In this document: positions 22,472-29,593 of the stretch, piece after piece
How the letters are laid out: every line of letters begins with the position of its first letter
How positions within the stretch are numbered: the first letter of the stretch is position 1
Sequence record: OP557969.1
Length of the DNA: 64,000 nucleotides
Source of the DNA: Escherichia phage ph0011
Reading direction: 5' to 3' (one strand)
Notes under the pieces: model-generated
What the model was told of the DNA's origin: nothing
The model's database searches: none
Seen by the model: only the letters and a program-made list of their open reading frames with translations
Translations under genes and position numbers: made by a program

Positions 22472-22510
22472 AACAAATAAAAATATAATGCTATAATTAG
22501 GAGTACACGG

Positions 22511-26762: not shown

Positions 26763-26767
26763 ATAAA

Positions 26768-26790
26768 AATCCCGCTTCGGCGGGATTAAT
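26768..26790 (+). terminator. Rho-independent terminator between nrdA and nrdB
   Basis: atcccgc-ttcg-gcgggat hairpin. Confidence 0.6.
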
Positions 26791-26816
26791 CTTTCCGAAT
26801 ATTTAAAGGAATATAT

Positions 26817-27941
26817 ATGTCAGTTTTTAAAATTAATGAGAAATCTCACCTAGAAAAAAATATGTTTTTTGATGAAAGTGTTGACATTCAACGATTTGAA
26901 AGTGTGAAATATTCAGCACTAGAGAAACTAACTGAACAACAGAAAAGTTTCTTCTGGACCCCTGGTGAAGTTGATGTATCCAAGGATAAAATTGATTTTG
27001 CCAACCTTAATGATTCAGAGAAGCACATTTTTACCTCTAACTTGAAACGTCAAATTCTTCTTGATTCTGTACAAGGTCGTGGTCCAAACCTAATGCTACT
27101 ACCATATGCATCACTACCTGAATTAGAGAACTTTATTGAGACATGGGCATTCTTTGAAGGTGCTATTCATAGTAAATCATATACTCATATTATTCGTAAC
27201 ATTTACCCTAATCCATCTGAAGTGTTTGATACTATGTTGGACATTCCAGAAATCACAGATTGTGCGGCTGATGTGTCTAAGTATTATGATGAACTGGATG
27301 AGCTAGGTACATGGTATAAAGTACTGGGTGAAGGAACTCACAATGTCAATGGTAAAACTATTGTTGTTGATATGTACGAACTTAAAAAGAAAATGTGGTT
27401 GTGTCTGAATAGTATTAACATCCTTGAGGGTGTGCGTTTTTACGCTAGTTTTGCCTGTTCGTGGGCCTACGCCGAAAACAAGCTTATGGAAGGTAATGCC
27501 AAAATTATTCGTCTAATTTGTCGTGATGAAAATTTACACTTAGCGGCAACACAAATGATTCTTCGCCTACTTAAGAAAGAAGATCTAGACTTTGCAAAAA
27601 TTGCAGAAGAGTGTTATGATGAAGTACTGGAAATGTTTATGTCTGCTATTCGCCAAGAAGAAGCTTGGGCAGATTTCCTCTTTAAAGATGGTTCTATTAT
27701 TGGATTGAACTCTGAAATTCTTAAACAGTATGTTCGCTGGATTGGATCTAAGCGTATGACGGCACTTGGTATCAAATGTCCATATACTGTATCCAAGAGT
27801 AACCCACTACCGTGGACTGAACACTGGGTAAGTGGTAGTTCTGTACAGGTAGCACCACAAGAAACTGAAATCAGTTCTTATATCATTGGTGGTATTGTGA
27901 ATGATATTCAAGAAGATACATTCACACCATTCAAACTATAA
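26817..27941 (+). CDS. nrdB: Ribonucleotide reductase class Ia beta subunit
   Basis: Immediately downstream of nrdA; typical length (374 aa); diiron-subunit-like helices. Confidence 0.75.
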   Translation: MSVFKINEKSHLEKNMFFDESVDIQRFESVKYSALEKLTEQQKSFFWTPGEVDVSKDKIDFANLNDSEKHIFTSNLKRQILLDSVQGRGPNLMLLPYASLPELENFIETWAFFEGAIHSKSYTHIIRNIYPNPSEVFDTMLDIPEITDCAADVSKYYDELDELGTWYKVLGEGTHNVNGKTIVVDMYELKKKMWLCLNSINILEGVRFYASFACSWAYAENKLMEGNAKIIRLICRDENLHLAATQMILRLLKKEDLDFAKIAEECYDEVLEMFMSAIRQEEAWADFLFKDGSIIGLNSEILKQYVRWIGSKRMTALGIKCPYTVSKSNPLPWTEHWVSGSSVQVAPQETEISSYIIGGIVNDIQEDTFTPFKL

Positions 27942-27953
27942 AATAAAACTAAC

Positions 27954-27978
27954 AGGGATTCATAGAATCCCTTTTCTT
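27954..27978 (+). terminator. Rho-independent terminator
   Basis: gggattc-ata-gaatccc followed by ttttctt. Confidence 0.6.
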
Positions 27979-27989
27979 ATGGAATTTTT

Positions 27990-28157
27990 ATGAGTGATAT
28001 TTTTACAATTGAGCGTAATGTTATCTATGACTTCTACCTAACTGGTGGATTTAAGGTAACTGGTGCGGTATCTGATGTTTGTCCAAATGGACTTGTACTG
28101 GTCGATGGTACTAGAGTTGTTCAGGCACATATTGTTATGTTTGTACCAACCAAATAA
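27990..28157 (+). CDS. Small ORF (55 aa) absent from the ORF track
   Basis: ATG at 27990 to TAA at 28155-28157, between a terminator and a promoter-like element. Confidence 0.3.
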   Translation: MSDIFTIERNVIYDFYLTGGFKVTGAVSDVCPNGLVLVDGTRVVQAHIVMFVPTK

Positions 28158-28163
28158 AAATTT

Positions 28164-29593
<1,430 letters not shown>

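Follow-up and report, generated by a model that had tools for sequence, protein, structure and literature searches.

A small gene fixed beside nrdB in RaK2-like jumbo phages encodes a predicted acidic, helix-less variant of the Sm/Hfq fold

Positions 27990-28157 (plus strand) of a 64,000-nucleotide stretch of DNA from Escherichia phage ph0011 (OP557969.1), hereafter called the window, were found to be a real protein-coding gene under purifying selection. In RaK2-like jumbo phages (Asteriusvirus, Alcyoneusvirus, Eneladusvirus, Mimasvirus and their relatives), this small gene was also shown to keep a fixed place beside nrdB. Structure modelling predicts, with high confidence, a soluble, acidic, five-stranded small beta-barrel of Sm type with approximately 55-70 residues; the modelled protein is most aptly called a variant of the Sm/Hfq fold that is acidic and has no helix. 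The gene itself is already known and catalogued; the assignment of an Hfq-like fold and the correction of the label 'membrane protein' appear to be new. The features of the locus are as follows.

26817-27941, plus strand: nrdB (class Ia ribonucleotide reductase small subunit), from the annotation of relatives and PF00268 on metagenomic orthologues
27954-27979, plus strand: intrinsic-terminator-like hairpin (stem-loop 27954-27972) and T-run TTTCTTA, from a pattern scan
27981-27983, plus strand: Shine-Dalgarno-like GGA, 6 nt upstream of the ATG, read directly
27990-28157, plus strand: 55-aa gene, PHROG 17251, from the ORF, tblastn, PHROG profile, dN/dS, AF2 and Foldseek
28164-28191, plus strand: promoter-like site of the next transcription unit, 10/12 match with TG
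28223-28456, plus strand: next gene, 77 aa, PHROG 16437 (no known function), first cistron of the downstream unit, syntenic in all relatives
about 27640-28180, no strand: putative recombination patch (3' end of nrdB, terminator, small ORF), from sliding-window identity

Results

Reading frame and coding status

Translation of the plus strand from the ATG at 27990 to the TAA ending at 28157 gave exactly the 55-aa peptide of the first-pass annotation, which had reported a short ORF after nrdB at these same coordinates. The ORF had been placed there between a terminator and a promoter, and it is indeed preceded by the hairpin at 27954-27972 and followed by the promoter-like site at 28164-28191. 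It starts 48 nt past the stop codon of a 374-aa ORF (26817-27941). Considered by length alone, the 55-aa ORF is not beyond chance (p about 0.05-0.11). When the gap of 281 nt was subjected to dinucleotide shuffling, an ORF of at least 55 aa appeared on the plus strand in 5.5% of the shuffles and on either strand in 11.5%. ORFs of 30-60 aa are abundant around the gene and spurious; 47 ORFs of at least 30 aa were counted in the 6-kb neighbourhood.

The 55-aa ORF is nevertheless more than a chance frame because it is conserved with a coding signature. A tblastn search with the peptide found 69 phage records, 67 of them at a coverage of at least 80%; two Tsukamurella matches (E=5) were noise. Conservation in related phages, the check proposed with the first-pass annotation, was therefore observed at the same position in 67 phage records from at least four jumbo-phage genera. 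The homologues belonged to Asteriusvirus, Alcyoneusvirus, Eneladusvirus and Mimasvirus and to unclassified phages such as Munch and Hallingskeid, and the hosts named for them were Escherichia, Salmonella, Klebsiella, Erwinia, Serratia, Yersinia, Pectobacterium and Xanthomonas. Identity of the 55-aa protein to that of Asteriusvirus members was 77-98%. No relative, even at 31% identity, had lost the open frame, whose length was 53-85 aa, and a core of 51 codons could be aligned without gaps across all loci compared.

Substitutions were counted by the Nei-Gojobori method. The window and Ecwhy_1 differed by 7 synonymous and 0 nonsynonymous substitutions (dN/dS 0), UE-S1 and PBECO4 by 9 and 0 (dN/dS 0), and the window and UE-S1 by 24 and 16 (dN/dS 0.09). 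Differences between the window and UE-S1 were distributed over the three codon positions as 11/4/25, and dN/dS of the small gene ranged from 0 to 0.26 within Asteriusvirus. The amino-acid profile of the family was conserved far more than the DNA. From the Nei-Gojobori counts, therefore, it may be concluded that the gene is translated and under purifying selection. An overlapping 56-aa ORF with a GTG start was noted in another frame at 28063-28233 (plus strand), where it overlaps the latter half of the small gene and runs across the promoter. The pattern of substitutions by codon position suited the 55-aa frame and not this one.

Beyond these records, 1.84 billion cluster representatives were searched exhaustively by HMM; only 29 proteins were returned at E<=1e-3. 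Approximately 22 of them shared the motif pattern and were standalone proteins of just 43-104 aa. The large matches P0062, P0067, P0068 and P0070 were Ig-repeat/adhesin-like proteins and were judged spurious, and no informative domain fusion of the family was present among the 1.84 billion representatives. Judging from these searches, the family appears to be confined to the RaK2-like phage clade. Two homologues, P0008 and P0042, are named in NCBI as 'hypothetical protein' of Escherichia coli and Salmonella enterica serovar Braenderup. They lie on contigs of jumbo-phage size (359 kb and 371 kb), presumably whole phage genomes that entered bacterial assemblies through a carrier state or contamination.

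The product matched PHROG 17251 (E=2.4e-24) with residues 1-55 on profile positions 5-59 of 62. The gene is the orthologue of 121Q gp34, PBECO4 gp470 and CBB_306, and GAP32_301 also belongs to the family. In most relatives the label is 'hypothetical protein' or 'membrane protein'; the latter was found in the RefSeq records of 121Q gp34, PBECO4 gp470, CBB_306 and Serratia BF gp303 and also in PHROG 17251. The first-pass annotation had called the ORF unannotated, which is correct for its own ORF track and incorrect for GenBank, since most relatives annotate the gene and PHROG 17251 exists. Its suggestion that a small gene had been missed through a length cut-off was borne out by the conserved slot and the synonymous third-position changes. 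It assigned no function to the product, and the Hfq-like fold is an addition to it. RaK2, slurp01, G17 and phAPEC6 lack an annotation of the gene, with the frame intact (in RaK2, L003:2977-3168). The CDS of Ecwhy_1 (L002:2974-3168) is annotated from an ATG further upstream that falls inside the terminator hairpin, and this start is probably wrong.

Position of the gene beside nrdB

The 374-aa ORF was taken as the nrdB orthologue because the syntenic gene is so annotated in every related phage and because metagenomic relatives match PF00268. The gene order of the region was nrdA, an optional 257-aa ORF, nrdB, the small ORF, the 77-aa ORF, a virion protein of approximately 130 aa and a MazG-like pyrophosphohydrolase. 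From nrdB to MazG, the window, three divergent lineages from metagenomes and 12 of the 13 phage loci shared this order; in Hallingskeid, only the ~130-aa virion gene was missing from the row. The small ORF directly followed nrdB even in the most divergent members.

Two neighbouring genes deserve a brief description. The N-terminal half of the 77-aa protein (28223-28456) is acidic, whereas its C-terminal tail is very basic and rich in Lys/Arg; the charge of this protein is opposite to that of the small acidic Sm-like protein, but its gene lies behind a promoter of its own. The 257-aa ORF between nrdA and nrdB was carried by about half of the relatives. It was present in UE-S1, Ecwhy_1, JNE01, CBB, fHe-Yen9-03, XbC2 and one metagenomic contig (L001:722-1495, L002:1042-1815, L005:546-1319, L008:546-1319, L010:520-1293, L011:537-1310 and L017:2052-2825) and absent from the window (nrdA-nrdB spacer 26763-26816), PBECO4, A4, RaK2, Serratia BF, Munch and Hallingskeid. 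This patchy distribution across genera suggests a mobile or frequently lost insert. No Pfam match was obtained for the 257-aa ORF; the CBB record describes it as similar to Bacillus phage G gp559.

A putative recombination patch

DNA of the region was 83-90% identical to that of Asteriusvirus jumbo coliphages such as UE-S1, PBECO4 and 121Q, which places the window among the RaK2-like myoviruses of approximately 350 kb. When identity was followed in a sliding window, positions of about 27640-28180, which take in the last 300 bp of nrdB together with the terminator and the small ORF, were 93-100% identical to the Ecwhy_1/CMSTMSU clade, whereas both flanks shared 90-98% identity with UE-S1/PBECO4 and just 60-83% with Ecwhy_1. 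The protein gave the same picture, being 98% identical to the Ecwhy_1 type and 77% to the PBECO4 type, with flank DNA at 88-90% and 83%, respectively. This looks like a homologous-recombination patch of approximately 550 bp, one breakpoint being within nrdB and the other at the promoter downstream. Compared with its PHROG 17251 relatives, the window copy is an Ecwhy_1-type allele inside a PBECO4/UE-S1-type backbone; no structural difference from the proteins of these relatives was seen.

Transcription and translation signals

The hairpin at 27954-27972 has an 8-bp stem, AGGGATTC-ATA-GAATCCCT, followed by TTTCTT. RNA folding of the spacer between nrdB and the small ORF was carried out for 17 loci, and a stable hairpin dominated in all of them, the free energy of the whole spacer being -10.7 to -17.2 kcal/mol (z -2.8 to -5.6). 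At least eight versions of the stem were distinguished between clades, for example GGGATTC, AGTACTGA, GGACGC, GGAGGC, GGGACAC and GCTGGGA. Because the letters of the stem varied between clades and the fold was constant, it may be concluded that structure and not sequence is maintained. The quality of the T-run after the hairpin varied, JNE01, Serratia BF and one of the metagenomic lineages having a poor one. A second GC-rich hairpin was noted directly past the nrdA stop codon (26768-26787, AATCCCGC-TTCG-GCGGGATT); it has no good T-run on the plus strand and was scored as a terminator only on the minus strand. A terminator is annotated at the equivalent place in UE-S1 and Munch.

Between the nrdB hairpin and the start codon, each of the 17 loci has GGA, GGAG or a variant (GGG, AAGG) at the corresponding position, with 6-10 nt separating it from the ATG. 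The records of UE-S1, Munch and fHe-Yen9-03 carry an RBS annotation at this Shine-Dalgarno-like site.

The site at 28164-28191 was the best sigma-70-like site of the 3-kb region. It consists of a -35-like AGGACA (28164-28169), a 16-nt spacer and an extended -10 element, TGCTATAAT (28183-28191), and TGnTATAAT was present right after the stop codon of the small ORF in all 17 loci. The extended -10 motif TGNTATAAT was enriched in the window, with 22 copies found and 8.1 expected, a number reached in none of 100 shuffles. Its copies lie on the plus strand at, for example, 3193, 9552, 14403, 19556, 22489, 28183, 31589, 38216 and 56329 and on the minus strand between 40935 and 62458; the strand switches along with gene orientation. 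The motif probably represents the main promoter class of the phage, of host-sigma70 type or 'divergent RpoD-like'. The extended -10 at 28183-28191 resembles the 'divergent RpoD-like' promoter class of phage CBB (PMC5259590). For DNA-synthesis genes, a TGAAAC(G) -35 element was described in the same paper (PMC5259590), and in several relatives this element precedes TGnTATAAT downstream of the small ORF.

No room for a promoter is left between the hairpin and the ATG, and the nearest upstream copy of the extended -10 motif on the plus strand is at 22489. Since the small gene has no promoter of its own there, we infer from the arrangement of the signals that it is read through from the nrdA-nrdB unit, expression from the nrdAB transcript being the simplest reading. 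Alternatively, transcription might start from a promoter within nrdB that went unrecognised. Sigma-70-like matches inside nrdB (27591-27620) were of chance frequency (14 found, 13.6 expected), and an internal promoter at this place was not relied on since such matches were no commoner than chance. Nothing relevant was found in the literature on transcriptomics or proteomics of the small gene or of the orthologues in its relatives.

Predicted structure of the product

An alignment of 45 sequences was used as AF2 input for the window protein. The model obtained was a five-stranded barrel with no helix (pLDDT 91.8, pTM 0.73), with strands at residues 12-17, 22-31, 34-37, 42-44 and 48-53. The same topology was predicted for P0021, a homologue of 33% identity with a longer N-terminus (pLDDT 81.2). 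The N-termini were modelled as coil (residues 1-11 in the window protein and 1-18 in P0021).

When these models were compared with the PDB by Foldseek, the top 50 matches were all Hfq for both models. TM(query) was 0.69-0.76 with the window protein and 0.57-0.63 with P0021, and nearly all matches had an rmsd of about 1.0-2.2 A over about 47 residues at 18-29% identity. The E-values were modest (about 2e-3 to 1e-2), with a probability of 1.00. In a fold search of BFVD, only the CBB orthologue was significant; the other matches were generic small barrels of no known function.

Sequence searches gave no significant match to the Hfq or LSm families. Pfam, NCBIfam and PADLOC families had no significant match to the protein, and Rfam had none to the DNA of the locus. 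Weak, below-threshold matches were seen to DUF6897 (best E=0.0016) and, for two of the 45 members, to PF17209 (Hfq; best E=0.0089); the window protein did not match PF17209. Sequence and profile searches of the PDB reached only E about 0.3-0.9, with Hfq (E about 0.7) and the LSm domain of Edc3 among the sub-threshold matches.

Profile-profile comparison was performed by hhalign, with reference sequences of Hfq, Sm, SH3 and CspA that may contain small errors. The results were as follows.

E. coli Hfq: P=1.4e-4, probability 52%, in register over beta1-beta3 (Sm1 region)
five-sequence Hfq alignment: P=4.6e-4
archaeal/eukaryotic Sm: P=0.018
SH3 (control): P=0.39
CspA (control): P=0.18

At the level of such sequence profiles, the comparison agrees with the fold prediction and points specifically to Hfq.

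Relationship to Hfq and other Sm-fold proteins

Like bacterial Hfq (PF17209; PDB 3sb2, 4pno and 3qhs), the phage protein is predicted to form a strongly bent five-strand beta-sheet of approximately 55-70 residues. The phage pattern 'Y-L-x-G-G-x-K-h-x-G-x-V' is in register with 'Y-L-V-N-G-I-K-L-Q-G-Q-I' of Hfq, and the C-terminal spacing V-x4-I-x4-P is identical to V54-x4-I59-x4-P64 of Hfq. The conserved structural residues are F5, Y13, L17, G20, G25, G34, L37, I48 and F51. Conserved polar residues are found in loop 3 (D32-N33, with P32 in this phage), in beta4 (H/R42) and in loop 5 (T/Q45, D/A46 and K/H47). The nucleotide pocket that surrounds the pore of Sm, LSm and Hfq rings is formed by these two loops, 3 and 5.

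The differences from Hfq are, however, considerable. The phage protein lacks the N-terminal alpha-helix of Hfq and hence Q8, R16, R17 and R19; a conserved D-I-F-T-F segment stands in its place, and the consensus D-I-F-T-F-D-P contains no basic residues. F42 of Hfq aligns with the invariant N33 or G34 of the phage family. There is no YKH: the equivalents of the Sm2 motif [YF]-K-H-A-I are P/V44, T/Q45, D/A46, K/H47 and I48, so that K56 and H57 of Hfq align with T/Q45 and D/A46. Hfq Y25 is matched by Y16 in the window protein, at a position that is not conserved in the family. The phage family is acidic (median net charge -5, pI 4.46), whereas the E. coli Hfq core has a charge of +4 and a pI of 10. 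In addition, beta3-beta4 is shorter, the disordered C-terminal tail is absent and, unlike Hfq genes, the small gene is phage-encoded and fixed next to nrdB. Because the helix, YKH, F42 and the rim arginines are lacking and the family is acidic, the 55-aa protein is not a true Hfq or an Hfq orthologue. Its acidity argues against general RNA chaperoning.

Sm/LSm proteins (PF01423) were compared as well. The conserved G25 of beta2 and the D32-N33 pair of loop 3 would fit an Sm1 pattern with a shorter loop, and hhalign placed beta1-beta2 in register at the P of 0.018 given above; a conserved acidic D46 and a conserved basic K/H47 occupy loop 5 where Sm proteins have R-G-D. In contrast to Sm/LSm, the phage protein has no long beta3-beta4 hairpin, no N-terminal helix and no RGD, the R-G of Sm2 being replaced by P/V-T/Q. 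No significant sequence match to Sm/LSm and no Pfam LSM match was obtained, and Foldseek preferred Hfq throughout.

In E. coli, YfaE, a small [2Fe-2S] ferredoxin, is encoded directly after nrdB. The small gene is likewise immediately downstream of nrdB and in the same orientation. A ferredoxin of the YfaE type was rejected: an all-beta Sm-type barrel is predicted, and the family lacks the four Cys. A YfaE-type Fe-S cluster is impossible because the only Cys (C31) is not conserved, being present in 5 of 45 members. Neither phage-encoded Hfq-like proteins nor studies of the small gene were found in the literature searched.

Discussion

Taken as a whole, the observations are best explained, with confidence somewhat above even, by a gene that encodes an Sm-type barrel, is expressed by read-through and binds a ligand in its loop pocket. 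On this reading, RNA polymerase would run past a leaky intrinsic terminator and include the small gene as the final cistron of the nrdA-nrdB transcript; ribosomes would start on it at a conserved GGA(G) site of its own, and the dose of the small protein would stay below that of RNR. Judging from the modelled fold and the conserved residues, the 55-aa protein probably self-associates and uses the loops of its ligand pocket, where nearly every conserved polar residue of the family is located. Self-association would proceed edge to edge via beta4-beta5, as in other Sm-fold proteins. RNA, a nucleotide or a protein partner is probably bound; the pocket of loops 3 and 5 would accommodate the ligand, which in the case of RNA would be a single-stranded segment. 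The protein would act during the DNA-precursor (middle) phase of infection.

A possible, though clearly less likely, alternative is that the acidic Sm-like barrel is a protein-binding adaptor or antagonist, which would modulate the phage RNR and dNTP-synthesis enzymes encoded beside it or, through co-assembly or as a ring cap, host Hfq. The uniform acidity of the family (median charge -5), without the basic rim and the proximal-face residues of Hfq, is consistent with this function, as are the hydrophobicity of both faces of beta5, where I48 and F51 hardly vary, as in an interface strand, and a predicted fold that is closest to the host's own Hfq. The linkage to nrdB, invariant in all loci examined, also argues for it; however, this linkage may only mirror a module-wide gene order, since the next four genes are equally syntenic, and the conserved polar residues cluster in the very loops that bind nucleotides in Sm proteins. 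More speculative, and regarded as doubtful, is a minimal, helix-less acidic Hfq mimic that would assemble into rings of Sm type, or join host Hfq in mixed rings or as a cap, and would either sequester specific RNA 3' ends or disable the Hfq-dependent riboregulation of the host while the nucleotide pool is being rebuilt.

Two further readings are effectively excluded. A small integral membrane protein is very improbable. The label is present in several RefSeq records and in PHROG 17251, and the membrane-protein labels of the CBB genome paper were derived from TMHMM (PMC5259590). A few members do pass the usual hydropathy threshold, the highest 19-residue Kyte-Doolittle mean being 1.96 in one of 45; however, a mean of at least 1.6 was reached by only 3 of 45 (P0028 1.96 and P0047 1.62 among them), the other 42 were below it, and the window protein had 1.45. 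Every hydrophobic run spans 6-10 residues and corresponds to a short beta-strand, with conserved G, D, N, H or K as interruptions; neither a signal peptide nor a lipobox is present, and the family is acidic and was confidently modelled by AF2 as an all-beta soluble barrel with no helix. A transmembrane protein was therefore rejected: there is no hydrophobic helix of ~19 residues, and the label is not supported. That the conserved element is RNA or DNA (terminator, spacer, promoter), with an incidental frame and no functional protein, is hardly credible at all. It is true that an ORF of such length occurs in 5-11% of the gap shuffles, that the gene is wedged between strong regulatory signals and that several annotators skipped it (RaK2, slurp01, G17, phAPEC6). 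Against this, the frame is open in all relatives down to 31% identity, substitutions in close pairs are third-position and synonymous, the amino-acid profile is far better conserved than the DNA, Rfam gave no match and the confident AF2 fold depends on co-variation in the alignment.

The gene call is routine in itself and confirms a conserved small cistron that has been missed or mislabelled in jumbo-phage annotations. The arrangement of gene, terminator, small gene and promoter would be a clean natural case for the study of read-through as a dosage device. A helix-less, acidic Hfq-like barrel fixed beside nrdB in a clade of 350-kb phages would represent an unusual form of a well-studied fold. 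Should the mimic described above prove true, it would be a phage-borne Sm-family protein acting on the RNA-chaperone system of the host. If RNA or host Hfq is bound, the finding bears on the interference of jumbo phages with post-transcriptional control in the host; if RNR or nucleotides are bound, phage dNTP synthesis would have a new accessory in this protein.
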